This document shows positions 11,740 to 34,711 of a DNA stretch of 64,000 nt, in pieces. Where the stretch lies: the IMG/VR virus record IMGVR_UViG_3300045988_050655. One strand, 5' to 3'. A program made the translations under genes and the position numbers. Positions within the stretch are counted from its first letter, which is position 1; each line of letters starts with the position of its first letter. Below the pieces are notes generated by a model. The model was not told the DNA's origin. It saw nothing but the letters and a program-made list of their open reading frames with translations, and did not search any database. This DNA comes from a virus.

Positions 11740-11744
11740 TATGA

Positions 11745-13679: not shown

Positions 13680-13719
13680 CTCTGCAAAGTTTGCAGCAAA
13701 CGTTGCAAACCTTGCAGAG
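13680..13719. terminator. 40-bp imperfect palindrome between convergent genes (bidirectional terminator candidate)
   Basis: ctctgcaaag-tttgcagcaaacgttgcaaa-ccttgcagag. The outer 10-mers are 9/10 complementary and the inner part is also self-complementary. Confidence 0.45.
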
Positions 13720-13729
13720 ACTAAGAGTT

Positions 13730-13762
13730 GGTATGGAGAGGGTACGGAGCGGGTACGGAGAG
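13730..13762. repeat. 11-bp direct repeat x3
   Basis: ggtatggagag / ggtacggagcg / ggtacggagag, ending 3 nt before the integrase stop codon (13766). Confidence 0.8.
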
Positions 13763-13765
13763 GGT

Positions 13766-14929: not shown

Positions 14930-14954
14930 AAGCCTTTCTTTTATAAATCTGCTG

Positions 14955-14962
14955 CAAAGATA
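14955..14962 (-). promoter_or_regulatory. Bacteroidota -7 box (TATCTTTG on minus strand) for int
   Basis: Plus strand reads caaagata. 26 nt upstream of ATG 14929. Confidence 0.5.
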
Positions 14963-14992
14963 AGCATTTTTTTTGTTACTCGCAAGTTTTGG

Positions 14993-15256
14993 GTAACAAA
15001 ATAGTAACAAAACTAACACGTATCAAATGTATAGGTAATGTATATCAAGCTTTCGGATAATTAATTTTTCAAAAAGGTAAAGCGTTGATAACTAAAAGTT
15101 TAGATATACATTTGATATACATTAGGTAACAGATAGCTTAAAGTGGGCTATCTACTATCTTTATTATTCCAATATGATTTATTTCACTAGTTAAACATCT
15201 GATTTATAGATAGTTATGAATTTCTTTGTTTTTAGTGAGTAACAAAATAGCAACAA
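14993..15256. repeat. 18-bp direct repeat pair gtaacaaaatag[t/c]aacaa
   Basis: Copies at 14993-15010 and 15239-15256 (17/18 identical). An inverted half-copy ttgttac lies at 14973-14979. Confidence 0.8.
15021..15124. repeat. four copies of the 8-mer TATACATT, two inverted plus two direct, each pair 11 bp apart
   Basis: aatgtata at 15026-15033 and 15037-15044. tatacatt at 15105-15112 and 15116-15123. The 13-bp tatcaaatgtata (15021-15033) is perfectly inverted at 15105-15117. Confidence 0.85.
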
Positions 15257-15460
15257 TGAAGTGTTAATCTTTGCAAAGTAACTAGCTTGCCCACAACAAA
15301 GATACGAATTAAATCTTATTCACAATTAGTTTTCAAAAAGGCTTTAACTTAGATTAACATTGTGTCGTTTCGTATATCTGATGTATACCCATTTCCCTAA
15401 AAATCCAATTTCCTTTACATTCAACACTTTTTAGCATTTGGCGGTTCCAAAAATTGTTTC

Positions 15461-15468
15461 TATCTTTG
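15461..15468 (+). promoter_or_regulatory. Bacteroidota -7 box (TATCTTTG)
   Basis: Exact TAnnTTTG match, about 120 nt upstream of ATG 15589. Confidence 0.5.
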
Positions 15469-15535
15469 CATCGTCAATGTTGCAGATTGACAGACTAAAG
15501 TAGTCCTCCTTTCAAGGCGAAAGCCTACAAGATAT

Positions 15536-15582
15536 GAGTCCCCTAGTTCTTGCTGCAACCAAGACTTCGGGACTCTTTTTTT
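15536..15582 (+). terminator. intrinsic-terminator-like hairpin with U7 tract inside a 5' leader
   Basis: gagtccc...gggactc (7-bp outer stem with a partly paired interior) followed by ttttttt at 15576-15582. ATG 15589 follows directly. Confidence 0.5.
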
Positions 15583-15588
15583 AATGTT

Positions 15589-16395
15589 ATGCAGTATATA
15601 AATGTAACCATAGAACTTCTTAAAGCATACTCTTCAAACAAGAGCATGAAGGAACTTCTTGCGGTTGCTATTTGGATAAAGATGCAGCATAGCAATTCTG
15701 TAATGTGGAATGTTACGGAATACAAATTAAGAAAAGAGTTGCATATCGGGAAACCAAAAGCAGAAAGACTTATTCAAGATATGAAGGAAGATGGCTTGTT
15801 TACCGTTGACGGAAACAAGGTTATTGTTCATTCATTCCGTGACAACACGATAAAGTGGACTCGTAAGGGTCGTGAGTATCGTGGTGCTATGGTCTGTAAG
15901 TTTGAGGTGAAAGAATATACATTGAAGGAACTATTCAATCTTATCAATGAGAAGCTTTTTGAATTTCAGATTTGTGCTGCCGAGCATAAGGACTGTTGTA
16001 TGAAAGCACCTGAGGGTGAAAAAGTCGGTGCCAAAGGTAAAGCAATCACAATAAAGCAATTTCAGAAGGCTCTCAATACAAGTGGTAGTTCTGTTTCAAG
16101 AATCAAGAAGAGACTTCTTGCCAGTGGTAGAATTAATTCTACTCTTGCAGAGAAACATTCCTTTGACATCAGGAATGAGGAAGAAACAAAAAGAACATTG
16201 TTGAGAACGAGAAAAACCAAAGCAGACTTTATTGTCGGCACTCTGGGATTTGTAGTTCTTGCCTGTTCTTATTCTATTGCTGATAGAGCGGTGTCGGATG
16301 GATTCAGACATCTTATCTATGGCAAGCAGAGTGAAAAGGTTATACAGAAAAACATGAGTAGTATTGGAGGAATCCCTGACGGATTTTTCTGTTAA
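15589..16395 (+). CDS. putative winged-helix DNA-binding protein (possible replication/regulatory role)
   Basis: ATG 15589 lies in frame within track ORF 15550-16395, whose TTG start would sit inside the hairpin/U-tract. ELHIGKPKAERLIQDMKEDGLFTVDG and TSGSSVSRIKKRLLASGRI look like HTH/wHTH segments. Confidence 0.4.
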   Translation: MQYINVTIELLKAYSSNKSMKELLAVAIWIKMQHSNSVMWNVTEYKLRKELHIGKPKAERLIQDMKEDGLFTVDGNKVIVHSFRDNTIKWTRKGREYRGAMVCKFEVKEYTLKELFNLINEKLFEFQICAAEHKDCCMKAPEGEKVGAKGKAITIKQFQKALNTSGSSVSRIKKRLLASGRINSTLAEKHSFDIRNEEETKRTLLRTRKTKADFIVGTLGFVVLACSYSIADRAVSDGFRHLIYGKQSEKVIQKNMSSIGGIPDGFFC

Positions 16396-18986: not shown

Positions 18987-19658
18987 ATGTTAGGAGCATT
19001 AATTGGGGCAGGTCTTGGACTTGCAAGTAGTATCGCTGGTGGTGTAGCTAACCGCAAGGCGAGACGTAAGCAGGAGCAGATGATTGCCCAGCAACAGAAA
19101 GAAAATCAGGCATGGTATGACCGAACATACAATGCCGACCCGACCAAGCGTGCTGATACGGTTCGCTTGCTCACACAGATGCAGGAGCAGATTAAGAACA
19201 GAAACAAGGCTGCCAAGGGCAGACAGGCGGTGATGGGTGGTATGGAAGACTCCACTACTGCGGTGAAGGAGGCGAACAACAAGGTTCTTGCTGATACTAC
19301 CTCACAGATTGTGGCTGCGAATGAGTCTCGCAAGGATAATATCGAGCAGCAGTATAGAGAGCGCAAGAATCAGTTACAGAACCAGCAGATGGGCATTGAA
19401 GCTGAGAAGGCTGCTGATACCGCTAATGCGGTGGCTGGCGTGGCTGGTACTGCTGCCAATATCGCTGCAACTATTGATAGTGGTGCTGGTGGAGCAAAGA
19501 AGGCTCCGAATATGAATGTGACTCAGGAGCAGTTGAATGGTATTGCCAAGAATCCGAATGATGTTCTTGGCTTGAAGGCGAAGACTACTGGGCTACCATC
19601 GCAAGGTGAACTGAATAGTCTTGGCTTGAAATTGCAAGAACAGAAAGTAAAAGCATAG
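18987..19658 (+). CDS. hypothetical protein with Gly-zipper N-terminal helix and coiled coil (virion/ejection-protein candidate)
   Basis: MLGALIGAGLGLASSIAGGVANRKARRK followed by Q/K-rich coiled coil. Confidence 0.45.
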   Translation: MLGALIGAGLGLASSIAGGVANRKARRKQEQMIAQQQKENQAWYDRTYNADPTKRADTVRLLTQMQEQIKNRNKAAKGRQAVMGGMEDSTTAVKEANNKVLADTTSQIVAANESRKDNIEQQYRERKNQLQNQQMGIEAEKAADTANAVAGVAGTAANIAATIDSGAGGAKKAPNMNVTQEQLNGIAKNPNDVLGLKAKTTGLPSQGELNSLGLKLQEQKVKA

Positions 19659-19661
19659 CCT

Positions 19662-20774
19662 ATGAAAGCATCAGATATGTTACGACACAATAATGGCTTG
19701 AAGACTACACAGAGTGTACTCAACAAGCAGCAGAGTGGGGTGGATGCTGCCAACAAGGTGGCACAGACTCAGGCTCCAGTCTTCACCCAGCAGCAACTTG
19801 ATGCGGCTGGCAAGAAGGTTGACCAGATGAATGCTGCCACTCCCACCGATGATGCTATGAAGGCGGCTAGGGCTAAGACTATCGCTACTCAGCAAGCTAT
19901 CGCCAATGGGGTGGACGTGAATCAGGGAGTGCCAAATGATGAGGAGGATAAACCATCCGTGCCTATCGTGAAGAAGGAGGAGCCAGCAGAACAGCCTAAG
20001 CAGTTGTCTTATGCCGACATGTATAAGATGCTGAATCCTGAGCAGCAGGAGACGGCTGAACAGAGGGCGAACAGAGAGAAAAAGGAGCGTACCAAGGCTC
20101 GTATCGCTGCTCTGGGTGATGGCCTCCGTGCGCTATCCAATATCTACTTCGCTACCAAGGGTGCAAAGGTGGTACACAATCCTGAGTCGGATATGACTAA
20201 GGCGGTGAATAAACGCAAGGCATATATGGATGCTCAGAGAGAGAAGAATCGGGCGGCTTGGCTGGCAGGGTATCAGAGGGCACTCGCTCTTGATGAGGAA
20301 GCTCGGAAGAATAACCTGACTCTCGCTGAGCAGATGAGGTATCACGATAATATGGATAGAGTCAATAGGGCAAAAGTCATGTTAGACCAAATGAGGATAG
20401 CACAGCAAGATGAATACAATAAGGGTAAATTAAGTAATCAGGAGTCTGCGAACAAAGAAACCGTTAGACATCATAAAGAGCAGGAAAGTACTAGTAAGAA
20501 GAATGCCAACGCTAATGTGACTAGAGCACAAAAGGCAGGAAAAAATAAAGGTGGTTCTTCTAAAGAAAACTATAATAAAACTCTCGCTGGTTTAACTACT
20601 AAAGACCCTAATGGAGTAAGAGCGGTTACTAAGAGTTTGAAACGTGCTGGTGTTCCTCAAAATGCACAGACAATAGTAGAGGCTTACAGAACACAGAATG
20701 GTTCATTCCATGGTGGCGGTTCTACGAGTAACAATAGTCGAGCTAAGCAATTAGCCAAGAAGTATGGATTTTAA
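19662..20774 (+). CDS. hypothetical Lys/Gln-rich coiled-coil protein
   Basis: 370-aa ORF, 4 nt after the previous stop. Confidence 0.45.
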   Translation: MKASDMLRHNNGLKTTQSVLNKQQSGVDAANKVAQTQAPVFTQQQLDAAGKKVDQMNAATPTDDAMKAARAKTIATQQAIANGVDVNQGVPNDEEDKPSVPIVKKEEPAEQPKQLSYADMYKMLNPEQQETAEQRANREKKERTKARIAALGDGLRALSNIYFATKGAKVVHNPESDMTKAVNKRKAYMDAQREKNRAAWLAGYQRALALDEEARKNNLTLAEQMRYHDNMDRVNRAKVMLDQMRIAQQDEYNKGKLSNQESANKETVRHHKEQESTSKKNANANVTRAQKAGKNKGGSSKENYNKTLAGLTTKDPNGVRAVTKSLKRAGVPQNAQTIVEAYRTQNGSFHGGGSTSNNSRAKQLAKKYGF

Positions 20775-20785
20775 ATAGTAATATT

Positions 20786-23700
20786 ATGCCAGATAATGTA
20801 GATAAGTTATTTGAAATAATGCAGGCGAAAGGTGCTGCTAGTGATAGAGGTAAGTTCCGAAAAGTATTCTTGACTCCTGGCAATAAGGGGTATAAGATAA
20901 GAAAGGATATTTATGATGGACTCAGGGCAGACGGCATTATAGATAGTCCAACTTACGAGGATTTTAGACGAAAGCTAAGACTTGGTGGTACTCCAACAGT
21001 CAATAAGTATCGTCAGCAAATGTTTAACTCTGTTGACCCAAACAAGAGCAGAGCGTCAGAACTTACTAATAGAGCGGTAGGTCAGGCTGTAAGGGCAACC
21101 AACAATGTCCGTAAACCAGTAACCGCAAAGGTTGTGAATCGGAAAGGTAAGCCAATTGGAGAGGAGTTTGCCATTACTCCTGCCAAGACCGTAGAAGACC
21201 TTGATAGGGAGTATGCTCAGGAGACAACAAAGAACTGGGAGAATGAACTGCATGACCAGATGGCTGATGCCGACAAGGATGCAGCAAAGATTAGCGATAT
21301 GTTCAAGTCCTTCATCGGTTCTACTGATGAAGTAGGTAGTGTATGGGGTAACATGACTAGAGGTGGCGGTATCGCTGGTACTCCTCATAGTGTTACTACC
21401 AACAATGGCATCATGGAGAATACAGAAGCTCGACAAATTCTTGCTGCTGGTGATTACAATCGTAAGAGAAGAGAACTCTTGCAGTTGGAGCAGGATTCAA
21501 GAAATGGTGCAATCTTTGACAATCATTCTTTTTTTAGAGGAATGTATGATGCAGCCAAAGATACTGGATTCCTGACTGGCGGTGCATCTGACCTTATCAA
21601 TGCTGGTTCCTTGCTTGCAACCAAGCAGGATTTGGATAATGGTGTCCATACTGAAGCTGGTGATATGCTGATGCAGCAAGCGGTAAAGAATAGTAATGCA
21701 CAGAGTCAGTATGGTGACAATCAGGGATGGATGTACACTGGTGGTGTTATCACTACCAATATGGCTCCTTTTATGGTGCAGATTGGTAGTGCTGGATTTT
21801 CCAAGGGTATGAGTAACGCTATTGGTAAGGTAGTGCAGAGTGCAGCTTCCAAGGTCGCATTGGGTATGATGAATAAGGCAATTGGATTGACAAGTACTCA
21901 TGTCGCAAACATCATAGGTAAAATGACTGGTCTTACTACCAAAGCATTCGGCAAGGCTATCCAGTATGGAATTGTAGGTGCTGCCCAAGCTAATACGGTT
22001 GGTCTTGGAAATGTGGCTAACGATGTGATTAACCGCTATACTGGTCAGGTCTATCAGGATGAGCAGGGCAACTACAAGTTTGGCACATTTGATAGTGATG
22101 GCAATCTTGTGCATGAAGGCGGTGAAGACTTCCTTACTGCTCTCGTAAAGGGTGAGGCGGCTCAGACTATTGAGTTTGCTACTGAGTTGGCTGGCGGTGG
22201 AATTGATGCTGCTGGTACTGCCCTGAAGAACTTCGTTACCAAAGGTGGCAAGAAAATTATCAACAAGTACAACATGGAGAATGTTTCCAAGGTGATTGAC
22301 TTCTTGCTTAATAATAAGGTGGCAAAGAATGCAAGATACTTGAAGGCTGGTGCTGACAGAACTCTTGGCAAGGTTGAAGTGAATAGTATTGTCGGTGAGT
22401 CTCTGGAGGAAGAGTTGGGTATCATCGCCAACACGGTCTTTACTGGTGATAATAAAATCTCAGACTTGTGGGATGAAAAGCAGCAGTCTCAGATATGGGG
22501 CGGCATGCTCTTGTCTATCGGATTGATGAAGGGTGCTGTTGCTCCTTTCCATGCTTATAATGCCAAGCAGTATTATTCCTATAAGCATAAGCTAGACAAG
22601 GCTGATGTGAACTTGTCTCAGTTGCTCGGTAAGGAGAAGTGGGAAGAACTCCGTAATCAGATTGATACTACAACAAACGATGATATGCCTGAAATGGTAA
22701 ACAGAATCAATCGTGATGTTGCTCTTGGTAAGAACAGACAGCCAGTGCGTGAGTATATTCAGAACTTGCTCATCATGCGTGGATATGACATTGGCAACAT
22801 GCTTGCTGCAAAGAAGGCAGTTGAAGACAAGGGTGAAGGTGTCTCTGTGAAGAATATGGAGAAGAATCAGGCATACCAGCAGGGTCGTGATGCTTATGGC
22901 TACGATACTCATGAGATTCAGTTAGACCAAGAAGACAAACAAAAGTCTCTTGCCCAACTTCTCGGTATCTCAGAGCAGCAGTTGGCATCCATGAGTGATG
23001 AGGAACTTGATGCACTCTCTGGTCGTGATGATAATATTGATAGGGCTATCTATGACTACCAGTTATCTACTGCTCGCTATGAAGGTGTGATTGATAATGC
23101 AAGAGACCAGATAGACTTGGAGGTTCAGAGGGCAGCACAAGCGGTTGATATGTACACAGACAAGTCTCGCAATACAATCCGAAATGCTACCATCAAGGCT
23201 ACTGGCGGCTTGGAAGACTATGGTGTTTATATTATTAATGGTAATATCGCTACCCATGAAGATGGTTCCATTGATATTAGTAATAGTGATGATATGATTC
23301 TGTATTATGACCCAACTACCAATACGGTTGAGCATGCTGATGCCATGATGTTTGCTGAACTGGGTAGTGAGGAGAATGCTGATGAAGTGAGAAGTCAGGC
23401 TATGGCTGATGCCAAGGAGAAGGCTATCAAAGAGACTACTGGTATCATTGATGGTGTTGTAGAGGTAGGTACTCAGTTCAAGACCGTTGATGCAGATGGA
23501 ACAGAACATACTTATGAAGTACTCGCTGATAATGGTGATGGTACTGCCATGATTACTATTGATGGCAACATTCCAACTGAACTTGTCAAGGGTGAGAATG
23601 TAAATATTCCAGTCTCGTTTGAAGAGTTGCAGAAGATGAAGGATGAGTCTGACCAGCAGAGATTGCAAGCGGCAAAGGCTCAGCGAGAACAGATGGAGAA

Positions 23701-26700
23701 GGAGCGTGCTGAGCAGCAAAATCAGGAGACAGAAGAGACTCAACCTTCATTTGACTTCAAAAAGATACTCAATGATAATGGTAACGTGGTGCTTGCTGAT
23801 GTACTCGACGAGGATGGCAATACAAGATACCCAAACTCAAAGTTATTTCTCATCCGTGATTCTGGTGCTAAAGCTAAGGTGGTAGAGTTGAAGAGTGATG
23901 GCACTCTTAAATCTCATGCCGTTGATAAGAAAGACGTGAGAACTGCTACTACTATGTCGCTCGATGAATACAAACAAGCTATGGCTGAATCCTCAATGAT
24001 AGAGGATAATAGTGGAGAGAATAGAGGTGAGATAGAGGCTGAAACTTCAATAATAGAGGATGCTGAACCAATAGGAACTGGTGCGTTTGGCAACATCTAT
24101 AATCAGTTTAAGGGCAAAGTTAAGGAGGCTTTCAACTTCCTGATGAGTCATAAGAGTGGAGATTTACTTGGTGTCTTCCATCGTGATGATGTTGGAGACA
24201 TTGACCTTGTATGGGGTAACGAAAAGATGGGTTTGGCTCATATCCTTGGAAAGCATGTAGGTGAAGGAAAAGACTTTGAGACTCCAGATGATGCTATTGA
24301 AATGATTGAGAATGTTATTAATAGCGGTCGTATCTTCCAAGATAATCAGAATCGCTATACATTAATGCTTGATGGTGTAGGTGTAGGTATCAGAAAGAGT
24401 TTCGATGGCGAGAAAAAGAATTGGATTGTGACTGCTGTTGACTTTAATAGAAGTCAAGAAGAAAAAGGAATCGTCACCAATCCCACGTCAACCTCTCATG
24501 GTGTTACTGAGTCAGAGTCTGCTGCTGCGCTCAACGATTCCGATGGCAAAGATATTAATAATTCTGCAAACGACAATGAAAATAATGAAAGTTTAACATT
24601 TGAGGATGGTACTCCTATCCCAGTTGATGAGAATGGAGAGACTGACCTTAGCCAGACTGATGCTGCTCATGCTGCTGAGTGGTATGATAATAACCTCGGT
24701 GAGGATGCTGACGATTGGTTGGATGGAGAAATCAAGAAGGCTAAGAAGGTATTGGAGCAAGCACAGAATAAGAAGGTGACTGGCACTAAGCCTTCTGAGT
24801 TGGTTGCAAGCAAGAAAGAGAAGGAAGCTGCCATTGCTGATGCCCAAGCACATTATGACTCTGCAATCTCTATTCGTGATTCGTTGAAGGAAAGAAGAAT
24901 TGCCAAGGAAGAGAATACTGCTGAGGGTAGGAAGGAACTCATTGAGAAGGAAAGAAGAAAGTTCGCTCGCTTGAAGAGTGCGGTGAAGGATGATGCTGAG
25001 GCGGTTGCTCAACTCTATAAGGAGACGGTTGGTTCGTTGCTGCATCGTCTTTACGATGGTACTGGCATTGACGTGACAGATACGATTCCGCTTACTGCTG
25101 AGGAGTATGTGGCTAGTAACCTCGGTGCTCACTCTCTCAACTATGAGGGAACAGAGACAAGCAAGGGTGTTAAGCAGGAGACTGGTTTGAACAGAGAAGA
25201 CTTTGCTAAGACTCAGTTGCTGGCTGCTGATGGCAAGGGAACTACTATTGATAACCTTGTGCATAGTCTGTGGGAGAATCGTCCATCTAACCTTGATTCG
25301 CTCGGCACACAAGAGATTCGTAACGCTTTGCTCAGCGTAATCACTAGCGGTTTCAAGGCATCGGAAGCAAGAAACTATATAGAGAATCTTCGTATTGCTC
25401 AGGCTGAGAACTTCCTTGAAGAGCAGAAGAAGGCTGCTGACAATGCCGCATTCGCTGAGGAGAATAAGGCTGAATCAGAACAACAGACTGAAACGGCTAC
25501 TGAATCTGAGGAGAAGACTGGGGAAGACAACTCTGATGAGATTAATGATGAGGATAATGAGAAGATAAATGAGCAGACAAATGAGAATATAAATGCTCCT
25601 GAGGTTCCTGAGGATGCAACGGAAGAGAATCCACTTGGCTTACAACTTAGCGAAGATAAGGTTCCGTTTGAAATTGAAGGAGGAAAGAGCGGTGAGACAT
25701 ATAACATAAATGATAATGAAGACAGACAGAGACTTATCAATGACAATAAGGTGGATGATAAGGACATCTTGGATATTGATATGCCTAAACATGTACACAA
25801 GGCTATTAAGGAGTTGTGTAAGAAGATGGGATTGAAGGTTCAGTTCCTTTATATGGGCGCAAGGTCAAATGGTTGGATAGAGAATGGAACCATGTATCTT
25901 GCTCTGGACACAGAGATGGCTACCCAGTTTGTGTTTGGTCACGAAATGACTCATGCAATCAAGCAGAAGAATCCTGAGGCATACAAGGAACTCGTTAAGG
26001 TTGCCATGGCTGTAACGACAAAGAAGAAGTTTGAGGAAGACTTGGCAAAGGTTTACCAAAACTATCATGGTATCTCTGGATATAACAATGTTGATGATTA
26101 CGTTGAGGAGGTTGTTGCTGACAACTTAGGAAAGTTCATTAATAACTTTGACTTGGCACAGAAGTTTTCTCTTCGTCTCAATCATCCTGTATTGGCAACG
26201 ATTCTTCATGCTATACAGAAGATAAAGAGTCTGTTATATGGAGACTTCTACAAGTCTGTAGATGCTTTGGAGCGTATCGTTGAAAAGGCATACGTTGATA
26301 CTGCCAAGGGTGAGGTGACGAACTCTGAGACTGGCGAAGATGTTTCCTTCTCTCTCCGTCAAAAGCCTGAACCTAAGAAGAAGGGCATCGGCTACAAGGT
26401 GTTCGTGTTGAAGGATGGCAAACTCTATCCACCAATGGTAGCGAACCCTGATGGTGCTGCTACTCCAGTAGGTGTATGGCTTGATGCTGATGCGGCTCCT
26501 ATTGCTGGAGAAAGCAAGACTGGCAGACCTCAGGTTAAGCAGGGCGGCAAGGGAACACAAGGCGGTAGCGGTAAGCTAGCCTATAGACCAGGCTGGCATC
26601 TTGGTGTTGTGCCTTATGCTATCCAGTTCAACCGCAAGGATGCTGAGGGAAACAAGACTCTCTTCCCTAAGAACTTTGTCTTCGCTGAGGTGGAGTATGC

Positions 26701-29700
26701 TGCTGATGTTGATTATCAGGAGGAAGCTCGCCAAGAGGGTATCAATCCATCGGGTAAGTATCAGCATTCTCTCGCTGGCTTGAAACATTTGCCTACTGAT
26801 GGCTATTATATGTATCGTACCAACCCGAACCCTGAGACTGACCCTTGGGTGATTACTGGTGCGATGAAGGTGAACCGCATCTTGACCAGAGCAGAGCAAG
26901 CAGAACTTGTGAAGAAGACTGGTCGTGAACCTCAGCAGATTCAGGAGGGCGATATTGTTACTGATGATGTTGTGAACAGCATCAATCAGGAGATAGCTGA
27001 TGCCCCTAAGTTCTCGTTGAAAGACCCATTCAAGATGTCTGACAATGAGAAGAAGGAGCGTGGTGATAGACTTATTAAGGCTCCAGCTATTAATGTGGCT
27101 AGTGGTGTCATTCAGAAGACTGCTGACTTGTCTGCAAGAAAGGCTGCTGAAAAGTGGTGGAATGAGAATGTAGCAAAACCTCTCGTCTTCAATACAGAGG
27201 TTGGTGATGTGGAGATTAATGATAAATCTATCAAGGATTCACTTGCTCATAGATACAGACAACCTAAGTTGGATGCCATTACATCATTACCTGATGGATT
27301 TGGAAATGCGGTGTACCTTGGTACAATGAAGGACTTCACTAGGGATGGTGATGTAAACAATCACTATTTCGCTTATCCTATCAATTATGATGGGCAGAGA
27401 AACTATGTGTTCTGTCGTGCTATGCAGGATGCTAACAAGAATAGATTATATGTGCATGAGGTGTTTGTTGCTGATAAAATAAACGAGGGCAATACCCTTC
27501 AAACCACAGCGTCACAGCCTCATGGAGGTATTGCCCTCTACAAAGAAATTCTTGCGAATGTTCTTTCTGCTGCAAAGATAGACAATTCTTCTGAAACTAC
27601 CAAGGAAAATGGCGAAAAGTTTTCATTGAAGGACGAAAAAACTCTTGCAGGAGTGCATAACATTACTGAGGAGAAGCTGAGAAAGGCTTTGAAACTGGGT
27701 GGCTTTGCCAATCCTTCTTTGGCTGTAATTGATACTAACAAGACTGGTCACGACAACTTTGGAGAGATTTCCTTCATCGCTCCTTCTGCCCTTGTAGATA
27801 AGCGTACTGGCAAGACTGCTGGTACTTGGATAACTGATGCCTATACTCAGCGTTATCCTTCCGTAGAACGAGAAATGAGCGAGAAAGGCAGTCAGAAGTT
27901 TAGAGACTGGGTTGATAGCCTTGAATACCCAAGTGAAGCTAAGGCTGAGATTAAGAGACAGGCAGAGGATGCTCTGAGCAACAATAATGCTCCTGCTTGG
28001 GAATTGATGTACTTGAAGGAAAAGGGTATTGACATTAAGGAGTATGATTCAAGAATTGATTATCGCTGGAAAGAAATTATCAAAGACCATCCAACTGTTG
28101 AGGACATTCTGAATAGTATGAATACTGACCCTGAACTGAATGAAAAGGTTACAGGTCTCGCTAAGCATATCATCGTTGACCCTATACGGGGAAAGATTTC
28201 GTTGGAGGTGAGAAGAAAGATATATGAAGAGACTGGTGTTAAGATGAGTTCTCTCAATCCACAAGTAAGAAAACAGACTAAGGAAATCTTTGAGCGTGAC
28301 TATGCGCCAAGTCTTCTTAACAAGAATGGTACACCAAAGAAATCCGATGTAAAGAAGGTTGTTGAACAGATGGTGAAGGAGCACAACGACACAAAGAAGT
28401 ATGACTTCTATCTGTCTAAGGTGAAGGCTAGTAATTACGTCAACAAGAATGGTCTTTATGATGATTACATCAGATGGCAGGAGAACAAACTGGATGAGTT
28501 CGGAACAAAGAACCGTATCTTCCGTGGCTATACTAAGGATGGTTCCAGAAAGTATGTGCCTGAGACTCTTGAAAATGTTTCAAAGGCTATGAGGGAAGAA
28601 GCAGATGGGCAGACCAATGGAAGCGAATATACCTCGTTTGGTAGCTTTATCGCAAAGTTGGCTAGTCGTGTTGATTCTACAGACGAAATGCGTGCCAACA
28701 AGGATAAGTTGTCTTCTAATAAGGATAAGGAAGAATTTTACGAGAAATGGTCGGACGTATATTATGACCTTGCCAAGTTCTTTTATAATGATGTGTTCTA
28801 TGGCGAGCAGAGACTTCACGATATTGTATTGCAGTCTGACCCTAAGAAGTATGCCAAGAAAGAATATGGCATTACCCTTACTCCTACCTTCATGAAGAAG
28901 CTGGATGCCTTGAAGAATGCAGTACAGACAGAGTTGAAGAGTGCGTACTTTGAGACTAAGTACAACAGACCTCTCCGTCTAAACGAGTTTGCTGCTGCCG
29001 TGGTTCCTGATAACTTGGGCGAAGATGTACGCAAGGGAATAGAGAATGCTGGCTTACCAATGTATGACTACGACCCGAATAAGGAAGGTGACCGCAGCCG
29101 TGCCTTCAATGAAGCTATCAATAGTAGAGACAATATCAAATTCTCTCTGAAATCTATGATGGCGAAACCTGAGGGATGGAAACAAGCCAACAAGAAGGCT
29201 ATACATATTGCAGAAGCTATTGAGCGTGACCCTAAGTTCTCCTTGAAGAACCTTGATGGAACTCTCATTAAGGCTGGAACATATTTTAGCGGTGGCGGTC
29301 TTGTTGAGGAAGGTTTGAAGGGTATCATCGACCCAGTGGTGGCAGTTGAGTATGACGAGAAGATAAGCGGTGTTTATCGCAACAACTTCGGGCAGCACAT
29401 CGTTACTGCTGATGTTCGTGATGTTGACCCAAGAGAGTTGGTTAAGCTGATTGATGGCGAGGTAGAGTACTTCCATGCCAGCCCAGTCTGCAAGAACTAC
29501 TCTCAGGCAAAGAGTAACCATGCTGAGGTGGAACTTGACAAGGAGACTGCTGCTAGTACTGCCGAGTTCATCAATGCTATCAATCCAAAGGTGGTGACAA
29601 TCGAGAATGTGAAGGGATATAAGGATTCGGATGCCATGAAGACTATTACCGATGCTCTGGATGCCAACGGCTACACTTGGGATGCAGATGTGTATAACGC

Positions 29701-32700
29701 TGCTGACTATGGCGGCTACACCAACCGAGAGAGATTGATTGTCCGTGCGGTTCGTGATGGCAAACTCCCTGAAAAGCCAAAGAAGATGGCACGCAAGAGC
29801 GGATGGTATGAAGCTGTGGCTGATATTATCCCGACCCTGACCGAGAAGAAGAATGGTGTGGCTCCTTGGATGGATATTCGATTGAAGGCTGATGGCATTG
29901 ACTGGCGAAACATTGACAAGCCATTATATGTGATGGGTAGTGCCTATGCTGACGGAAAGGTTCCTCATGCCTTCGCTGATGAACTGCTGCCTACACTCCG
30001 AACCAAGAGCGGTGATGTGATTGTGATGCCTGATGGCAAGGTATATCGTGCCATGGGCAGAGTGCTCGCTAGAGTATCAGGAGTGAGCGATGATTACAAG
30101 ATGCCATTCTCTGAGAATCTGAGCCATACCATCATCGGCAACGGAATCCCTACTCAGTTGACCGAGCATGTTATTGCTCCTCTGCTTACTGGCTCCGACC
30201 CTAAGTTTAGCATCCGTACCTATCACGGCACTGGTGCTAGCTTTGACAAGTTCGATTTATCTCATGCCTTGGAAGGCGAGGGAAGTGAGAGCTTCGGTCA
30301 TGGTGTGTATGTTACCAACTCTAGCAAGATTGGACGTGAGTATGCCCAGAGAGCAAAGAATAGAAAGATGGAAGACCTCTATAAAAATATGCGCTACCCT
30401 GATGGGGTGAAGGGCGATATTTTCAAGAGAAGAGTCTTTGGTGAAATGGTGAACGATGTGGCTACTGGCGGTAGTGTGGCAAGTGCCAAGGAGTTTGCCA
30501 AGAAACGTGTCGGTGCTGATGCCAATGATATTCAGCGTACCCTTGAAAACTTGAAGGATAGAGAGAAGGGAACTGAGTATGAACAGAACTTGAAGGATAG
30601 ACTTGCAGAGTATAAAGAAGGCTTGAAGTGGATTGATTCTCTTGATGAAGATTATCTTACCCAAGGGAACGCTAACAGATACGATGTGGATATTCCTGAT
30701 GATAACGGTGAAAATTACCTTGGATGGAATGAGTCTCAAAACTTCCCATTGGAAAAATGGTACAGACTATGGGAAATAACTCATGAAGGGTTTAATGAAA
30801 ACGAGTATTTCAAAGATGGTGGAGCGAGATATGATATAGATAGGATTGAGCGTATCACCCAAATGAAACTTGAATCGCCAGAGAATGGTATGCAGAGACT
30901 TCCTACATTAAAAGGTGAAGCATTGTATCATGCTTTGGAAGACTTCTTCAACCGTGAAAGACCTTCGTATGGTGCAGAATTAGCATCAAGGGCTTTGAGT
31001 GAAATAGGTTTTGTCGGTATCAAGTACCCTGCTGGAATGATTCATGGCGGTGCTGAGGAAGGAGATTACAACTATGTGATATTCGATGAGAACAATGCCA
31101 ATATCGTGGGTAATACCCGATTCTCCTTGCGCTATGACCAGTTTGAACACGACTTGAACCAGTGGAAGAAGGATAATAATCTGCCTAAGGATGCCCAGCG
31201 ACCAACCATCCCACAACGCAACGCTGGCGAGAGTGCTGCTGCATTCTTGAAGAGAGTGGATGAGTACCGCAAGCAGATGGCTCTTTGGAAGACTGCTCCA
31301 ACATACGAGCAGCATCTTCTGAGTGATGATACTGCCCTTGGAGAGTTCAACCGAGAGTTGCAGCGTGGTTCCGTGCTGAAACGTATCGCCTTCCAAGATA
31401 GTATGCTGGCTATCCGCAAGGCTCAGGAAGCTATCATGAAGGAAGTTGGTGTTGACCGCCTGAATATGGCTGAGGATGCCTATACTGCCGAGAACCGGAG
31501 TCACGGCAAGGGAAAGAATGAGTTTGAGGAGTACAATAATGAGTTCTTGCAGCCATTGAGAAAGGCTTATCACCAGATGAAGAAGATACTTGGTGATAGC
31601 TACGATAATGTCCGTATCTACATGATGGCTAAGCATGGCTTGGAGCGTGATGCCCAGATGGCATTCAAGAAGTCACTGGATGCTGACTTTGAGGATGTGG
31701 CTCAGAGAAGTGCGGCATACAGGGCTTACAAGGGCGATATGAACCGTATTACCAATGATAGCGATTTGGAGTTTGGAAGAGTGGATTTCACTACTTGGAG
31801 GCAGAGAGATAATGCTCTCAGAACGAAATATTCTCCTTCCTATATGGACTATCGTTATGATGAGAATGGTATCGCCTACGATTATTCAGGCTTGTCGGCT
31901 CTCTTCGGTGGCTCTGACTTTGAGGAAGCTGCCCACAAACTGGTAAGGGATATTGAGAGTAGTCATGTAGCTGAGGTGCAAGACCTCTGGAATGCTACGA
32001 ATGCGGCTACCAAGAAGATTCTCCGTGATGGCTATAAGGCTGGTATGATGAGCAAAGATACTTATCAGTATGTGCGAGATATGTATAGCCATTATATTCC
32101 TCTCCGTGGCTGGGATGGCACTACTGCCGACCAAGTATGGGACTATATTGGTGGTGGCAAGGGTGCGTTCAATCAGACCTTGAAAACGGCACATGGACGA
32201 ACCTCTATTGCTGATGACCCTATCGCCTACATCGAGAATATGGCAGAAAGTGGAATCCTGCTGAACAACAAGAACTGGGTGAAGCAACACCTGATGCTCT
32301 TGGCTCAGAATCATCCAACTTCCCTGCTGACCCTGAGCAAGGCTTGGTACGTGAAGAGTACGGATGCCAACGGCAACGAGGAGTGGATTCCTGCTACACT
32401 TCAGATTACTTCTCATATGAATAGCAATCAGGTGAAGGCTGCTATTGATGCTTTCGAGCAGAAGATGGAGAATATGGCGCAGACTGGCGATGCTACCCAG
32501 CAGAGAGAAGGCTTGAATATTGCCTATCCTCAGACTCATAGCGAGGAGAGAGAACATGAGGTAAGAGTGATGAAGGATGGCGAGGAGTATATTATCTATG
32601 TGAATGGTGACCCTCAGTTGGCTCAGGCGATGAACAATACCAGAGCACACCGAGTGAGAGAAATTCAGAGCGGCAAACTGGATAGGGCTGCTGCTTGGTT

Positions 32701-34711
32701 GGGCAGAAAGATGGCTGCTGCCTATACCAGTCTTTCACCTCTCTTCATCCCTTCCAACTACTTCCGAGACCTGACCATGACGCTGGCATCTACCGCTATT
32801 CGTGAGGATGGAAAATACAACTATCTGCTCAGAAAGAATCTGGCTACCTCTTGGAATCTCGGTTTCATGTTGAGAGACTATCAGAATGGCAAGTTGAGAG
32901 AGAAGGTAAGCAACGGAAACGCTACTCCTAAGGAACAGATGTTCTATGACTTCATGATGAATGGTGGCGAGACTGGCTTTGTATCTTCACTTGATGTGGA
33001 AGACTTGAAGAAGAAATTCAAGAATGACTTGAAGGATTTGGATAGATGGAAGGCGAACCCAGTTAAGGTTGGGCACACCATCATGGATGGCATTGAGTTC
33101 CTGAACAGAGCAATCGAGGATAGTAACCGATTTGCGGTTTACATGACCTCTATTCAGTATGGACGTTCCATTGATGAGGCTGTGAATGATGCCAAGGACG
33201 TTACCCTGAACTTCAACCGCAAGGGTACTGGCGAATACGGCTGGCAGATGGTTAGAAATCTCTATCTCTTCATCAACCCAGCGGTACAGAGTTTGCAGAC
33301 TCTTGGTGCGCTTGCCAAGCATCATCCTTTCAAGTTCACGGCTGTTACTGCATCATGGTTGGTGAGTGGTGTGCTGGTTCCTATCGTTAACGCTGCCCTG
33401 ATGAGTCTGTTGGGCGGTGATGATGATAAGGATAAGTACTGGCAGTTCACCAAGTGGGATAGACGAAACAACCTTATCATGTGGGTTCCTACTACTCATG
33501 AGTTCGTGAAGATTCCGCTTGCTCAGGAGTTCCGTGCTTTCTATGGAATAGGCGATATGATTGCATCCAAGATGATGGGTGGCGAGTTGGCTGAGGAGAG
33601 TTGGAGTCAGTATGCAGAAGACTTGCTCGGTCAGGTGGTGGATATGCTTCCGCTCGACCCGACTGGATATGACGGCAATATTGCGGTCAGCCTGATGCCG
33701 AATGCTATTCGCCCAGTCTTTGAGTTGGCTTTCAATGTTGACTTCACTGGCAAGCCATTATTCAAGGAGACAGAGTATAACAAGTATGACCCGAACTTTA
33801 CCAAGGCATACGTGGGTACTCCTGATTGGTTGGTTCGTGCATCCAAGATGGTTAACTCAATCGGAAACGACTATCCTGATGTGCAGCAGAACAGCATTGA
33901 TGCTTTCGGTGACCCAAGATACAATCTGAATAACCCTGCTGTGGTTGACCATGTATTGTCTTCTTATCTCGGTGGTGCTTACACCATGGGCAGTCAGGTG
34001 CTCGGTGTTCTTACCAAGTCACTCAACGACCCGAAGGAAATCAAGGTGGCTGATATTCCATTATTCAGCAAGTTCGTCAGCAATCCTGATGATAGACCGG
34101 TTACTAAGAAACAAGGTGATGAGTTCTGGAATATGAAGGAGAACCACGACCGTGCAGCCAATACCCTGAGCAAGTTGAAGAAACAAGCTAAGGTGGATGG
34201 CGATTACTCTATGCTGGAGCGGTTCTACGGCTCAGAGGAGTATAAGCAGTATAAGCAGGATGATGTGAAGGTGAAGAAGTATGAGGAAGACAAGAAGAAG
34301 GAACGTGCTGAGGAGAGTGGGGAGGAGTATAGACCTAACAAGTTGAATGCCGAGGATATATATAAGGCTCATGCTACTCCGAAGGATGATTTCGAGGACT
34401 TGAAACTGAAACAACTCTACACTAAACTGAACGGATTCAAGACTTCCTATGACCTCTTGGTTGATACGGCTCCTAGTCAGAGCGATGCCTACTACAACAC
34501 CAACAAGTCTGCCATTGATGCCATTGACGAGATTTCCCTTGATAAGCAGGAGATTTCCGAGTTGAAGAAAGGTTTCTTGGATGATGGCAAGGATGCCTAC
34601 AACGCTGAGGACATGAAACAGATTCGTGAACTGAGAAAGAAGATTCTTGCTGTACTGGAGAAGGCTAACAAGGTAGTTGTGGCTAACCAGAAGGCGAAGA
34701 CTGAGAAGTAA
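20786..34711 (+). CDS. giant polyvalent (multi-effector) protein, 4,641 aa
   Basis: One uninterrupted 13,926-nt ORF. Embedded HExxH zincin, C5-MTase, ART-like and barnase/EndoU-like modules, plus several unknown modules separated by a recurring (K/R)FS(L/I)(K/R) motif. Confidence 0.85.
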   Translation: MPDNVDKLFEIMQAKGAASDRGKFRKVFLTPGNKGYKIRKDIYDGLRADGIIDSPTYEDFRRKLRLGGTPTVNKYRQQMFNSVDPNKSRASELTNRAVGQAVRATNNVRKPVTAKVVNRKGKPIGEEFAITPAKTVEDLDREYAQETTKNWENELHDQMADADKDAAKISDMFKSFIGSTDEVGSVWGNMTRGGGIAGTPHSVTTNNGIMENTEARQILAAGDYNRKRRELLQLEQDSRNGAIFDNHSFFRGMYDAAKDTGFLTGGASDLINAGSLLATKQDLDNGVHTEAGDMLMQQAVKNSNAQSQYGDNQGWMYTGGVITTNMAPFMVQIGSAGFSKGMSNAIGKVVQSAASKVALGMMNKAIGLTSTHVANIIGKMTGLTTKAFGKAIQYGIVGAAQANTVGLGNVANDVINRYTGQVYQDEQGNYKFGTFDSDGNLVHEGGEDFLTALVKGEAAQTIEFATELAGGGIDAAGTALKNFVTKGGKKIINKYNMENVSKVIDFLLNNKVAKNARYLKAGADRTLGKVEVNSIVGESLEEELGIIANTVFTGDNKISDLWDEKQQSQIWGGMLLSIGLMKGAVAPFHAYNAKQYYSYKHKLDKADVNLSQLLGKEKWEELRNQIDTTTNDDMPEMVNRINRDVALGKNRQPVREYIQNLLIMRGYDIGNMLAAKKAVEDKGEGVSVKNMEKNQAYQQGRDAYGYDTHEIQLDQEDKQKSLAQLLGISEQQLASMSDEELDALSGRDDNIDRAIYDYQLSTARYEGVIDNARDQIDLEVQRAAQAVDMYTDKSRNTIRNATIKATGGLEDYGVYIINGNIATHEDGSIDISNSDDMILYYDPTTNTVEHADAMMFAELGSEENADEVRSQAMADAKEKAIKETTGIIDGVVEVGTQFKTVDADGTEHTYEVLADNGDGTAMITIDGNIPTELVKGENVNIPVSFEELQKMKDESDQQRLQAAKAQREQMEKERAEQQNQETEETQPSFDFKKILNDNGNVVLADVLDEDGNTRYPNSKLFLIRDSGAKAKVVELKSDGTLKSHAVDKKDVRTATTMSLDEYKQAMAESSMIEDNSGENRGEIEAETSIIEDAEPIGTGAFGNIYNQFKGKVKEAFNFLMSHKSGDLLGVFHRDDVGDIDLVWGNEKMGLAHILGKHVGEGKDFETPDDAIEMIENVINSGRIFQDNQNRYTLMLDGVGVGIRKSFDGEKKNWIVTAVDFNRSQEEKGIVTNPTSTSHGVTESESAAALNDSDGKDINNSANDNENNESLTFEDGTPIPVDENGETDLSQTDAAHAAEWYDNNLGEDADDWLDGEIKKAKKVLEQAQNKKVTGTKPSELVASKKEKEAAIADAQAHYDSAISIRDSLKERRIAKEENTAEGRKELIEKERRKFARLKSAVKDDAEAVAQLYKETVGSLLHRLYDGTGIDVTDTIPLTAEEYVASNLGAHSLNYEGTETSKGVKQETGLNREDFAKTQLLAADGKGTTIDNLVHSLWENRPSNLDSLGTQEIRNALLSVITSGFKASEARNYIENLRIAQAENFLEEQKKAADNAAFAEENKAESEQQTETATESEEKTGEDNSDEINDEDNEKINEQTNENINAPEVPEDATEENPLGLQLSEDKVPFEIEGGKSGETYNINDNEDRQRLINDNKVDDKDILDIDMPKHVHKAIKELCKKMGLKVQFLYMGARSNGWIENGTMYLALDTEMATQFVFGHEMTHAIKQKNPEAYKELVKVAMAVTTKKKFEEDLAKVYQNYHGISGYNNVDDYVEEVVADNLGKFINNFDLAQKFSLRLNHPVLATILHAIQKIKSLLYGDFYKSVDALERIVEKAYVDTAKGEVTNSETGEDVSFSLRQKPEPKKKGIGYKVFVLKDGKLYPPMVANPDGAATPVGVWLDADAAPIAGESKTGRPQVKQGGKGTQGGSGKLAYRPGWHLGVVPYAIQFNRKDAEGNKTLFPKNFVFAEVEYAADVDYQEEARQEGINPSGKYQHSLAGLKHLPTDGYYMYRTNPNPETDPWVITGAMKVNRILTRAEQAELVKKTGREPQQIQEGDIVTDDVVNSINQEIADAPKFSLKDPFKMSDNEKKERGDRLIKAPAINVASGVIQKTADLSARKAAEKWWNENVAKPLVFNTEVGDVEINDKSIKDSLAHRYRQPKLDAITSLPDGFGNAVYLGTMKDFTRDGDVNNHYFAYPINYDGQRNYVFCRAMQDANKNRLYVHEVFVADKINEGNTLQTTASQPHGGIALYKEILANVLSAAKIDNSSETTKENGEKFSLKDEKTLAGVHNITEEKLRKALKLGGFANPSLAVIDTNKTGHDNFGEISFIAPSALVDKRTGKTAGTWITDAYTQRYPSVEREMSEKGSQKFRDWVDSLEYPSEAKAEIKRQAEDALSNNNAPAWELMYLKEKGIDIKEYDSRIDYRWKEIIKDHPTVEDILNSMNTDPELNEKVTGLAKHIIVDPIRGKISLEVRRKIYEETGVKMSSLNPQVRKQTKEIFERDYAPSLLNKNGTPKKSDVKKVVEQMVKEHNDTKKYDFYLSKVKASNYVNKNGLYDDYIRWQENKLDEFGTKNRIFRGYTKDGSRKYVPETLENVSKAMREEADGQTNGSEYTSFGSFIAKLASRVDSTDEMRANKDKLSSNKDKEEFYEKWSDVYYDLAKFFYNDVFYGEQRLHDIVLQSDPKKYAKKEYGITLTPTFMKKLDALKNAVQTELKSAYFETKYNRPLRLNEFAAAVVPDNLGEDVRKGIENAGLPMYDYDPNKEGDRSRAFNEAINSRDNIKFSLKSMMAKPEGWKQANKKAIHIAEAIERDPKFSLKNLDGTLIKAGTYFSGGGLVEEGLKGIIDPVVAVEYDEKISGVYRNNFGQHIVTADVRDVDPRELVKLIDGEVEYFHASPVCKNYSQAKSNHAEVELDKETAASTAEFINAINPKVVTIENVKGYKDSDAMKTITDALDANGYTWDADVYNAADYGGYTNRERLIVRAVRDGKLPEKPKKMARKSGWYEAVADIIPTLTEKKNGVAPWMDIRLKADGIDWRNIDKPLYVMGSAYADGKVPHAFADELLPTLRTKSGDVIVMPDGKVYRAMGRVLARVSGVSDDYKMPFSENLSHTIIGNGIPTQLTEHVIAPLLTGSDPKFSIRTYHGTGASFDKFDLSHALEGEGSESFGHGVYVTNSSKIGREYAQRAKNRKMEDLYKNMRYPDGVKGDIFKRRVFGEMVNDVATGGSVASAKEFAKKRVGADANDIQRTLENLKDREKGTEYEQNLKDRLAEYKEGLKWIDSLDEDYLTQGNANRYDVDIPDDNGENYLGWNESQNFPLEKWYRLWEITHEGFNENEYFKDGGARYDIDRIERITQMKLESPENGMQRLPTLKGEALYHALEDFFNRERPSYGAELASRALSEIGFVGIKYPAGMIHGGAEEGDYNYVIFDENNANIVGNTRFSLRYDQFEHDLNQWKKDNNLPKDAQRPTIPQRNAGESAAAFLKRVDEYRKQMALWKTAPTYEQHLLSDDTALGEFNRELQRGSVLKRIAFQDSMLAIRKAQEAIMKEVGVDRLNMAEDAYTAENRSHGKGKNEFEEYNNEFLQPLRKAYHQMKKILGDSYDNVRIYMMAKHGLERDAQMAFKKSLDADFEDVAQRSAAYRAYKGDMNRITNDSDLEFGRVDFTTWRQRDNALRTKYSPSYMDYRYDENGIAYDYSGLSALFGGSDFEEAAHKLVRDIESSHVAEVQDLWNATNAATKKILRDGYKAGMMSKDTYQYVRDMYSHYIPLRGWDGTTADQVWDYIGGGKGAFNQTLKTAHGRTSIADDPIAYIENMAESGILLNNKNWVKQHLMLLAQNHPTSLLTLSKAWYVKSTDANGNEEWIPATLQITSHMNSNQVKAAIDAFEQKMENMAQTGDATQQREGLNIAYPQTHSEEREHEVRVMKDGEEYIIYVNGDPQLAQAMNNTRAHRVREIQSGKLDRAAAWLGRKMAAAYTSLSPLFIPSNYFRDLTMTLASTAIREDGKYNYLLRKNLATSWNLGFMLRDYQNGKLREKVSNGNATPKEQMFYDFMMNGGETGFVSSLDVEDLKKKFKNDLKDLDRWKANPVKVGHTIMDGIEFLNRAIEDSNRFAVYMTSIQYGRSIDEAVNDAKDVTLNFNRKGTGEYGWQMVRNLYLFINPAVQSLQTLGALAKHHPFKFTAVTASWLVSGVLVPIVNAALMSLLGGDDDKDKYWQFTKWDRRNNLIMWVPTTHEFVKIPLAQEFRAFYGIGDMIASKMMGGELAEESWSQYAEDLLGQVVDMLPLDPTGYDGNIAVSLMPNAIRPVFELAFNVDFTGKPLFKETEYNKYDPNFTKAYVGTPDWLVRASKMVNSIGNDYPDVQQNSIDAFGDPRYNLNNPAVVDHVLSSYLGGAYTMGSQVLGVLTKSLNDPKEIKVADIPLFSKFVSNPDDRPVTKKQGDEFWNMKENHDRAANTLSKLKKQAKVDGDYSMLERFYGSEEYKQYKQDDVKVKKYEEDKKKERAEESGEEYRPNKLNAEDIYKAHATPKDDFEDLKLKQLYTKLNGFKTSYDLLVDTAPSQSDAYYNTNKSAIDAIDEISLDKQEISELKKGFLDDGKDAYNAEDMKQIRELRKKILAVLEKANKVVVANQKAKTEK
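24065..24450 (+). other. domain: PBECR-like (barnase/EndoU/RelE-type) module of the giant protein
   Basis: aa ~1094-1221. GDIDLVWGNEKMGLAHILGKHVGEGKDF. Assigned from memory of polyvalent-protein nuclease modules only. Confidence 0.35.
25772..26340 (+). other. domain: zincin metallopeptidase (MPTase-PolyVal-like)
   Basis: FVFGHEMTHAIKQ, with the HExxH at nt 25940-25954 (H1719, E1720, H1723). Confidence 0.55.
29234..30202 (+). other. domain: C5 cytosine DNA methyltransferase
   Basis: YFSGGGL (I), HASPVCKNYS (IV, Cys2902), TIENVKGY (VI), TNRERLIVRAV (VIII), IIGNGIPTQL (X). Confidence 0.75.
30203..31117 (+). other. domain: ADP-ribosyltransferase-like (H-Y-E, ART-PolyVal-like) with a long insert
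   Basis: TYHGTGASFDKFD, FGHGVYVTNSSKIGREYA ... GFVGIKYPAG..GDYNYVIFDENN. Confidence 0.45.

Follow-up and report, generated by a model that had tools for sequence, protein, structure and literature searches.

A recurrent five-residue peptide marks the module junctions of a giant polyvalent phage protein and is a candidate site for effector release

The window described here is the whole stretch of viral DNA that was analysed, 64,000 nucleotides of IMG/VR record IMGVR_UViG_3300045988_050655, and it covers most of a phage genome (64.0 of ~65.8 kb). It encodes the large terminase (TerL), a portal, an SU10-type major capsid protein, a tail fibre and an endolysin, together with a giant open reading frame (ORF) that runs as a single frame from 20786 to 34711 on the plus strand and specifies 4,641 amino acids (aa). 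Our analysis concerns a KFSLK-type peptide that recurs between the effector modules of this giant protein. The 4,641-aa protein is identical on 8 public contigs, the longest of 65,785 bp, and a megablast of its gene against GenBank phages returned no match. The JGI/IMG label for the whole protein is 'site-specific DNA-cytosine methylase', a name taken from one module among many.

Pfam analysis of the giant protein placed LPD14 at aa 465-602, PBECR1 at 1131-1222, LPD3 at 2117-2222, PBECR5 at 2283-2448, a C5 DNA methylase at 2834-3130, ART-PolyVal at 3144-3241 and LPD38 at 4216-4426. The Pfam cut-off was passed by LPD38, PBECR5, PBECR1, LPD3 and DNA_methylase and missed by ART-PolyVal and LPD14. 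Several disparate effector domains, including LPD, PBECR and ART-PolyVal types, are thus joined in one polypeptide, and the giant gene stands among virion genes (TerL, portal, SU10-type major capsid protein, tail fibre, gp14-like). Polyvalent proteins share the domain vocabulary LPD3, LPD14, LPD38, PBECR1/5, ART-PolyVal, InPase and LPD13 (Iyer, Burroughs, Anand, de Souza and Aravind 2017, PMC5512222). The polyvalent proteins of phages and conjugative elements are the same class as the window protein, with the same domain vocabulary and virion-gene setting.

The copies of the peptide in the giant protein are listed below; HSP stands for high-scoring segment pair, MTase for methyltransferase, AF2 for AlphaFold2 and pLDDT for its predicted local distance difference test.

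26345..26359, plus strand: junction motif 1, SFSLR (aa 1854), between the zincin module and module M2; relatives have S/A/R-F/L-S-L-R
27008..27022, plus strand: junction motif 2, KFSLK (aa 2075); 98 HSP ends on its last residue
27617..27631, plus strand: junction motif 3, KFSLK (aa 2278); PBECR5 aligns from aa 2283, and the equivalent in gp68 of phage BF1-TP2 is IRFRE
29138..29152, plus strand: junction motif 4, KFSLK (aa 2785), in the frame of ORF 20786-34711
29234..29248, plus strand: junction motif 5, KFSLK (aa 2817); the stand-alone MTase of phage PaV-LD begins ~8 residues later
30203..30217, plus strand: junction motif 6, KFSIR (aa 3140); short strand of low to moderate confidence in the AF2 model
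31118..31132, plus strand: junction motif 7, RFSLR (aa 3445); AF2 pLDDT<50, distant equivalent D-I-RFR-[DE]
26162..26176, plus strand: eighth motif-like copy, KFSLR (aa 1793-1797), within a helix of the zincin module

An earlier note on this DNA had reported seven copies, confined to the central array. All seven lie at the positions it gave and in the frame of ORF 20786-34711, as six strict junction copies plus SFSLR, but a further strict copy, KFSLR at aa 1793, had been overlooked. Composition alone predicts 0.017 strict copies and 0.13 of FS[LI][KR], compared with the seven strict copies plus SFSLR observed. The 3,000 shuffles yielded a maximum of one strict copy and two of FS[LI][KR], which excludes chance. 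No copy was found in any other ORF of the window (all ORFs of at least 80 codons, six frames). The aa 1793 copy is probably not a junction. We excluded it because AF2 places it in a confident helix (pLDDT ~85-89), because it aligns with 'LKMSHPLLA' of related zincins and because it reads RFVLR in a close relative (P0004); its flanks are invariably alike in relatives. It could be a chance resemblance or a pseudo-substrate. Representative peptides of the motif are ETGEDVSFSLRQKPE and IADAPKFSLKDPFK.

The segments that the junction copies delimit are the following.

25763..26344, plus strand: zincin-like metallopeptidase module (~aa 1660-1853), with invariant HEMTH and EEVVAD and an AF2 fold
26345..27007, plus strand: module M2 (aa 1854-2074), phrog_30118 (function not assigned), 1.4e-35, no Pfam family
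27008..27616, plus strand: LPD3 module (aa 2075-2277), Pfam LPD3 at 2117-2222
27617..29137, plus strand: PBECR5 nuclease module (aa 2278-2784), Pfam match at 2283-2448, 35% identity to BF1-TP2 gp68
29138..29233, plus strand: 32-aa mini-module (aa 2785-2816), between two motifs and before the MTase in most relatives
29234..30202, plus strand: C5 cytosine DNA methyltransferase module (aa 2817-3139), PF00145 at 2834-3130, TIGR00675 below cut-off
30203..31117, plus strand: ART-PolyVal-like ADP-ribosyltransferase (ART) module (aa 3140-3444), Pfam match at 3144-3241, below cut-off
31118..34708, plus strand: conserved C-terminal region (aa 3445-4641), transmembrane-like segment at aa 4186-4211, LPD38 at 4216-4426, phrog_14770

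In most of the close-clade proteins that we looked at, M2 comes after the zincin. In some relatives the place of the mini-module is taken by a longer segment of ~70 aa that opens with a degenerate RFSLA. The ART-PolyVal match is strong in paralogous modules, and these paralogues (~30% identity) align motif to motif.

Relatives were collected by searching with the central 1,861 aa of the giant protein, and the best 120 of 706, some of them Prevotella-named, were analysed. These 120 hold 564 strict copies (V or M allowed at position 4), 1 to 8 per protein, against 1.9 expected. The window protein and 134 close relatives together carry 569 strict copies in 358,179 residues, compared with one in the 554,568 residues of 135 distant family members. 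After reduction to non-redundant contexts (<50% flank identity), 74 remained, and the information across them is limited to [KR][FY]S[LIV][KR], with weaker flank preferences for D/N at -3/-2 and for I/P/E/T/V at -1. When the positions were relaxed one by one, all five proved strongly conserved. Ser is present in 240 of 249 unique [KR][FY]x[LIV][KR] contexts versus a 5.7% background, and the Phe/Tyr position is essentially invariant. A literature search on the motif strings found nothing relevant.

The proposal of the earlier note that the motif marks module junctions was supported by domain placement, HSP ends and combinatorial joining. A Pfam scan of five close-clade proteins placed one domain in each inter-motif segment and no motif within a domain. 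Local alignments of the window protein with its relatives also end there: of 167 HSP ends, 144 are no more than 15 residues from a motif copy, and 98 fall exactly at the final residue of the aa 2075 copy. Clustering of the flanks distinguished 74 types upstream and 67 downstream, which combine in 159 different pairs; one of the upstream types, the C-terminal end of an ART module, was paired with 11 different downstream modules, and a single chain can hold up to 12 junctions (P0127). Because domains segregate by segment, HSPs stop at the motif and flank types combine freely, the motif is, on this sequence evidence, the seam at which cassettes are exchanged.

The motif was also said to sit exactly at the start of the flanking domain. 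It does lie close to the start, but its offset varies: from motif start to the first Pfam-aligned residue there are ~4 residues for ART and PBECR5, ~17 for the C5-MTase and ~42 for LPD3. In phage PaV-LD the C5-MTase stands alone and opens with MLTFATLFTGGGG, which aligns to LIKAGTYFSGGG, ~8 residues past motif 5. Similarly, position 10 of the 194-position phrog_30118 profile aligns to residue 17 of the M2 segment, so that this profile begins just past the motif. The 12 residues before the motif consist to 55% of D/N/G/S/P/E/T, versus a 44% background. The AF2 model of the zincin module puts SFSLR (aa 1854) in a tail of pLDDT<50, 14 residues past the last helix, and in that of the ART module (pLDDT 69) the aa 3445 copy also has pLDDT<50. 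Structure prediction is divided between linker and strand: these two copies look like linker, and the copy at aa 3140 is modelled as a short strand, at low to moderate confidence. As a general role, 'strand 1 of each domain' is unlikely because the downstream folds are unrelated, the spacing varies, the MTase and M2 homologues begin past the motif and two copies have pLDDT<50. The models and the stand-alone homologues together predict that the motif is an accessible linker outside the folded domains.

We also compared the copies at the DNA level. In the window, residue 1 is encoded by AAG, AAA or CGA, Phe by TTT or TTC, the aliphatic residue by CTT, CTC, CTG, TTG or ATC, and Ser by five codons (TCT, TCC, TCA, TCG and AGC); Leu, Ser and Arg each use codons of two families. 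Identity between copies is 33% at the third codon position versus 68% at the first and second, with a mean of 56% over the 15 nt. The same codon freedom was seen in a relative's locus and in BF1-TP2. Given the 33% third-codon identity and the varied Ser codons, AGC among them, selection acts on the amino acids and not on the DNA. The 9-mer CCCTAAGTT had been noted at three junctions. It is indeed present there, but one base away from the positions first reported, at 27004-27012, 29230-29238 and 30199-30207, and it represents merely the codons of (x)Pro-Lys-Phe. Its suggested use as micro-homology for module shuffling is not supported, given the third-codon identity and the five Ser codons.

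The KFSLK-type motif, whose second position is F or Y, is confined to the closest clade (at least ~53% identity). The wider family is much larger: 5,380 cluster representatives match the C-terminal 1,171 aa, and these are giant proteins, the longest of 7,236 aa. Relatives at 35-40% identity have D-[IVL]-RFR-[DESQ] at the same junctions and never KFSLK. These equivalent junctions stand before the ART 'VYHGS', before the PBECR5 'LVGLHN' and before the C-terminal region. An example is gp68 of Bacteroides phage BF1-TP2 (PQ571263.1; 3,633 aa), whose PBECR5 is 35% identical and which has IRFRE, IRFRE, VRFRS and VRFRE but lacks KFSLK; the BF1-TP2-type peptide is NDDIRFREVKDK. Its sites lie before an ART-like module, before PBECR5 (spaced as in the window protein), before its own zincin and before the C-terminal region. 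A literature search on phage BF1-TP2 found nothing. Across 137 distant proteins we counted 62 [ILVM]-[KR]F[KR]-[DEQS] sites, and the typical context is '...NxGxF(D/S)xxNxDI-RFR(D/E)' followed by 'VYHGS...' (ART) or '...LVGLHN...' (PBECR5). Pfam analysis of two distant proteins found RFR copies outside every domain, and some domain junctions there have no RFR. Since the close clade also shows 'NNGDFSxxNxDI-R(F/Y)SLK', the KFSLK and RFR motifs are homologous variants. Within one protein a single version is used at all junctions, and the version differs between lineages. This is the behaviour expected of sites read by one common factor. A de novo search for recurrent peptides in 135 giant proteins (reduced alphabet, Poisson p<1e-5) confirmed in context, among distant relatives, only the RFR type, which was flagged in P0227; the remaining peptides were few enough to be multiple-testing noise.

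A candidate for this common factor is encoded in the giant protein. The zincin module lies immediately upstream of the first junction and carries HEMTH at aa 1719-1723 (nt 25940-25954) and EEVVAD at aa 1774-1779 (nt 26105-26122). H1719, E1720, H1723 and E1774/E1775 (EE..AD) are invariant over 9-12 divergent homologues. The AF2 model (pLDDT 76, predicted template modelling score 0.72) shows a three-strand sheet followed by the active-site helix and the Glu helix, a predicted gluzincin-like arrangement in which the two helices carry HExxH and EExxAD. The next junction is 135-138 residues away from HExxH in three divergent groups, and the zincin is present in every close-clade sequence that reaches upstream of the first junction. 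Strong HEMTH-type matches all fall within the closest clade, and outside it there was one marginal match (P0138, E=2e-4). Upstream of the zincin, between it and PBECR1, lies an acidic low-complexity spacer rich in E, D, N and K (24473-25705, ~aa 1230-1640) without a junction motif.

The zincin signature is missing in 67 of the best 120 relatives. Of these, 39 begin MSHPLLAKMHDV, inside the zincin module, and most of the others also begin inside the zincin module or M2; judged by these starts, the close-clade sequences without a zincin are truncations. One such truncated array was found at 9923-16012 of the public metagenome contig ERZ27287205:k141_1078802 (locus L002; proteins P0022-P0057), surrounded by housekeeping genes (LuxS, TonB, BipA, rpsO and OmpA). 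It adjoins a Gp49/HTH pair and is presumably on a bacterial chromosome. Its frame opens in the zincin module past the lost HExxH and ends 40 aa beyond the last junction motif. As at this locus, 39 cluster representatives begin MSHPLLAK, and most zincin-less homologues have PVREPNDR-type termini, yet their module content is varied. The locus seems to keep swapping cassettes, because module content differs despite the common termini.

The gene context and the homology to an LPD38 protein point to where the giant protein would act. The giant LPD38-bearing protein gp47 of phi24B has been found in virions and was proposed to be an ejection protein (bioRxiv 10.64898/2026.04.10.717836). By analogy with gp47, and in view of the genome context, we infer that the giant protein belongs to the internal virion or ejection proteins and brings the effector array with it. 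Directly upstream is a gene pair:

18987..20774, plus strand: upstream gene pair, encoding a 223-aa T7 gp14-like protein (internal virion protein) and a 370-aa protein without a match

The T7_gp14 Pfam match of the 223-aa protein is near threshold (26 bits against a 27-bit cut-off). Together with the giant gene, this pair is laid out like a gp14/gp15/gp16 ejectosome block. The sole strongly hydrophobic, transmembrane-like segment of the giant protein (aa 4186-4211; 33341-33418) stands directly before LPD38, which fits membrane insertion by the C-terminal region.

Taking these observations together, we propose that the motif is a candidate recognition and cleavage site that releases the effectors, an interpretation to which we give a little less than an even chance. 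The motif would be a short linear recognition element in a flexible linker ahead of every effector module. Cutting at it would divide the polyprotein into M2, LPD3, the PBECR5 nuclease, the C5-MTase and the ART, and the same cuts would detach the zincin-bearing N-terminal portion from the membrane/ejectosome portion at the C-terminus. The candidate protease of the window protein is its embedded gluzincin-like module (HEMTH...EEVVAD). Its place just before the first junction could allow a first cut in cis, with the others following in trans. Thermolysin-type zincins favour a bulky hydrophobic P1' residue, and for this reason we tentatively assign the cut to the bond that joins the basic residue to the invariant Phe/Tyr. 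That the reader is a protease, which protease it is, which bond it would cut and when (in the capsid or after ejection), we infer.

Several results weigh against this proposal. The zincin module reached only 17.2 bits with Pfam Peptidase_M13, below the 24.5-bit cut-off, and a profile search of the Protein Data Bank gave no match. Foldseek with the zincin model gave a best E-value of 0.3, with the zinc peptidases 3c37 and 6bh8 only among the insignificant matches. The AF2 model leaves the first junction peptide without a structured, docked conformation. At aa 3140, just two residues ahead of the 'YHG' core, the ART model gives 'KFS' as a short strand with low to moderate confidence, and a structural contribution of the motif within this module may exist. 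The full-length distant proteins P0227, with an N-terminal LPD14 and a C-terminal LPD38, and P0185 have three or four RFR[DE] motifs (four, of the RFRD type, in P0227) but no HExxH. Because they keep junction motifs without HExxH, a zincin in cis cannot be the universal reader. In distant relatives, regular-expression and hidden Markov model searches for the zincin revealed no clear association with the RFR motif, and the co-occurrence of zincin and motif in the close clade could be purely phylogenetic. Other possible readers are a phage or host protease that acts in trans, a peptidase that escaped recognition within the conserved N- or C-terminal regions and a non-proteolytic reader.

The last of these would be a single partner that binds the motif without a cut and deals with the chain one module at a time, for example an Hsp70-type chaperone that ratchets and refolds the protein after tail passage, or a capsid or portal factor that would organise the chain in its packaged state. 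The motif is like the pattern that DnaK generally binds: its hydrophobic core has basic residues on either side and lies in an exposed linker. The retention of the motif in relatives without HExxH would also be explained, and one uniform motif per lineage suits any single reader. In BF1-TP2, a DnaJ-annotated gene (L001 17665-18297) lies directly downstream of gp68; this adjacency, however, is a single case, and the gene is on the opposite strand. The motif is also far stricter than chaperone-binding patterns, as seen in the near-fixed Ser and the near-invariant Phe/Tyr, and we consider such a reader unlikely. We regard as distinctly unlikely that the motif is a structural boundary element, an amphipathic beta-strand that caps the N-terminus of each module, for instance by pairing with its C-terminal strand, and allows it to fold independently. 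The alternating K-F-S-L-K pattern suits a strand, and AF2 places strands at 'KFS' (aa 3140) and at NIVGN just before the next motif. Nevertheless, the folds that come after these five residues are unrelated to one another (Rossmann-type MTase, ART, BECR nuclease, InPase, LPD3 and LPD13) and follow at spacings of ~4-42 residues, stand-alone homologues lack the motif, and the aa 1854 and aa 3445 copies are in low-confidence tails. That a whole lineage has exchanged S-L-K for R-[DE] at all junctions is likewise hard to square with fold-specific packing.

Two further explanations are much weaker. If the motif were a recombination linker with no role in the protein, the shared junction sequence would let cassettes swap in frame; cassettes are clearly exchanged at the motif, and three junctions share the 9-mer. 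However, an imperfect identity of 9-15 nt is a poor substrate for homologous recombination, and the peptide has been kept through synonymous divergence, with one-third identity at third codon positions and two codon families each for Leu, Ser and Arg, which indicates selection on the protein. The codons largely refute this explanation, and we judge it very improbable. Self-cleavage by an N-to-O acyl shift at the Phe-Ser bond would require no separate protease. HF|S autoproteolytic sites are known in Nup98 and PIDD, and the F-S dipeptide, invariant in the close clade, resembles them. It is disfavoured because the distant junction motif R-F-R-[DE] has no Ser and offers no Thr or Cys nucleophile in its place; in addition, no His precedes the Phe and there is no common upstream fold to strain the bond. 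Self-cleavage is therefore barely credible.

Release of domains from polyvalent proteins by embedded zincin-like peptidases has been predicted before (Iyer et al. 2017, PMC5512222). The portion of that paper cited here names no cleavage site or junction motif, whereas the present analysis offers a specific peptide and its lineage variant. The zincin of the window protein falls below every Pfam peptidase-family threshold. In MARTX toxins the effector array is cut between domains by an internal InsP6-activated cysteine protease domain at Leu-containing linkers. The likeness lies in one giant delivered polypeptide with a central array of shuffled, unrelated effectors and a candidate protease in the same chain, which would set them free once delivered. 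In contrast, delivery here would be by a phage capsid and tail rather than by secretion and a pore, the candidate protease is a metallopeptidase, the five-residue motif is better defined and cleavage is putative. Viral polyproteins also carry a short consensus at every junction, such as the 3C Q|G and potyvirus NIa sites. As with KFSLK and RFR[DE], their consensus is uniform within a genome and differs between lineages; the present case differs in that it concerns a DNA phage, a presumed virion-packaged protein, an unrelated candidate protease and a putative cleavage.

In polymorphic toxins a conserved peptide at the cassette swap (VENN in CdiA, PxxxxDPxGL in Rhs/Tc) is a processing or delivery boundary. 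Here, too, a peptide demarcates the point at which variable cassettes are swapped, but polymorphic toxins have a single junction before one C-terminal toxin, compared with the many junctions per chain described above. No match to VENN or PxxxxDPxGL was found in the junction consensus [KR][FY]S[LIV][KR], and the likeness is functional only. Prohead proteases recognise short motifs as well, L/I-x-E for T4 gp21 and S/A/G-x-E for phiKZ, and they resemble the system proposed here in the consensus-coded cutting of internal virion proteins before ejection. The S/A/G-x-E motif is also that of the prohead protease of SPN3US (PMC10052503). We considered a prohead-protease site and rejected it: the window ORFs that we scanned with Pfam or PHROGs (from 64.0 of ~65.8 kb) include no recognisable prohead protease family, and the motif is absent from the capsid, the portal and all other ORFs. 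The capsid of the window phage is SU10/T7-like, and T7-like phages are not known to have a maturation protease.

A more speculative extension, which we think quite improbable, is that the motif serves as the address label for a dedicated processing system that co-evolves with its sites, written KFSLK in the Prevotella-associated clade and D-I-RFR-D/E elsewhere. A cut before the aromatic residue would leave each effector with an N-terminal Phe/Tyr, an N-degron for ClpS/ClpAP. If so, the phage would have given every nuclease, ADP-ribosyltransferase and methylase that it injects a self-destruct timer.

Polyvalent proteins are among the largest proteins of phages and plasmids and are thought to deliver anti-defence and takeover enzymes with the incoming DNA. 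Their processing into working units has been proposed since 2017 without any site, and the junction peptide described here is the first concrete candidate. Such a defined peptide, with a second lineage-specific version, makes the processing proposal directly testable. In addition, the motif provides a simple rule for delimiting modules, including those without a family, in thousands of uncharacterised giant phage proteins. It shows the points at which cassettes are exchanged, which would be useful for annotation and for engineering the delivery of cargo by phage capsids.

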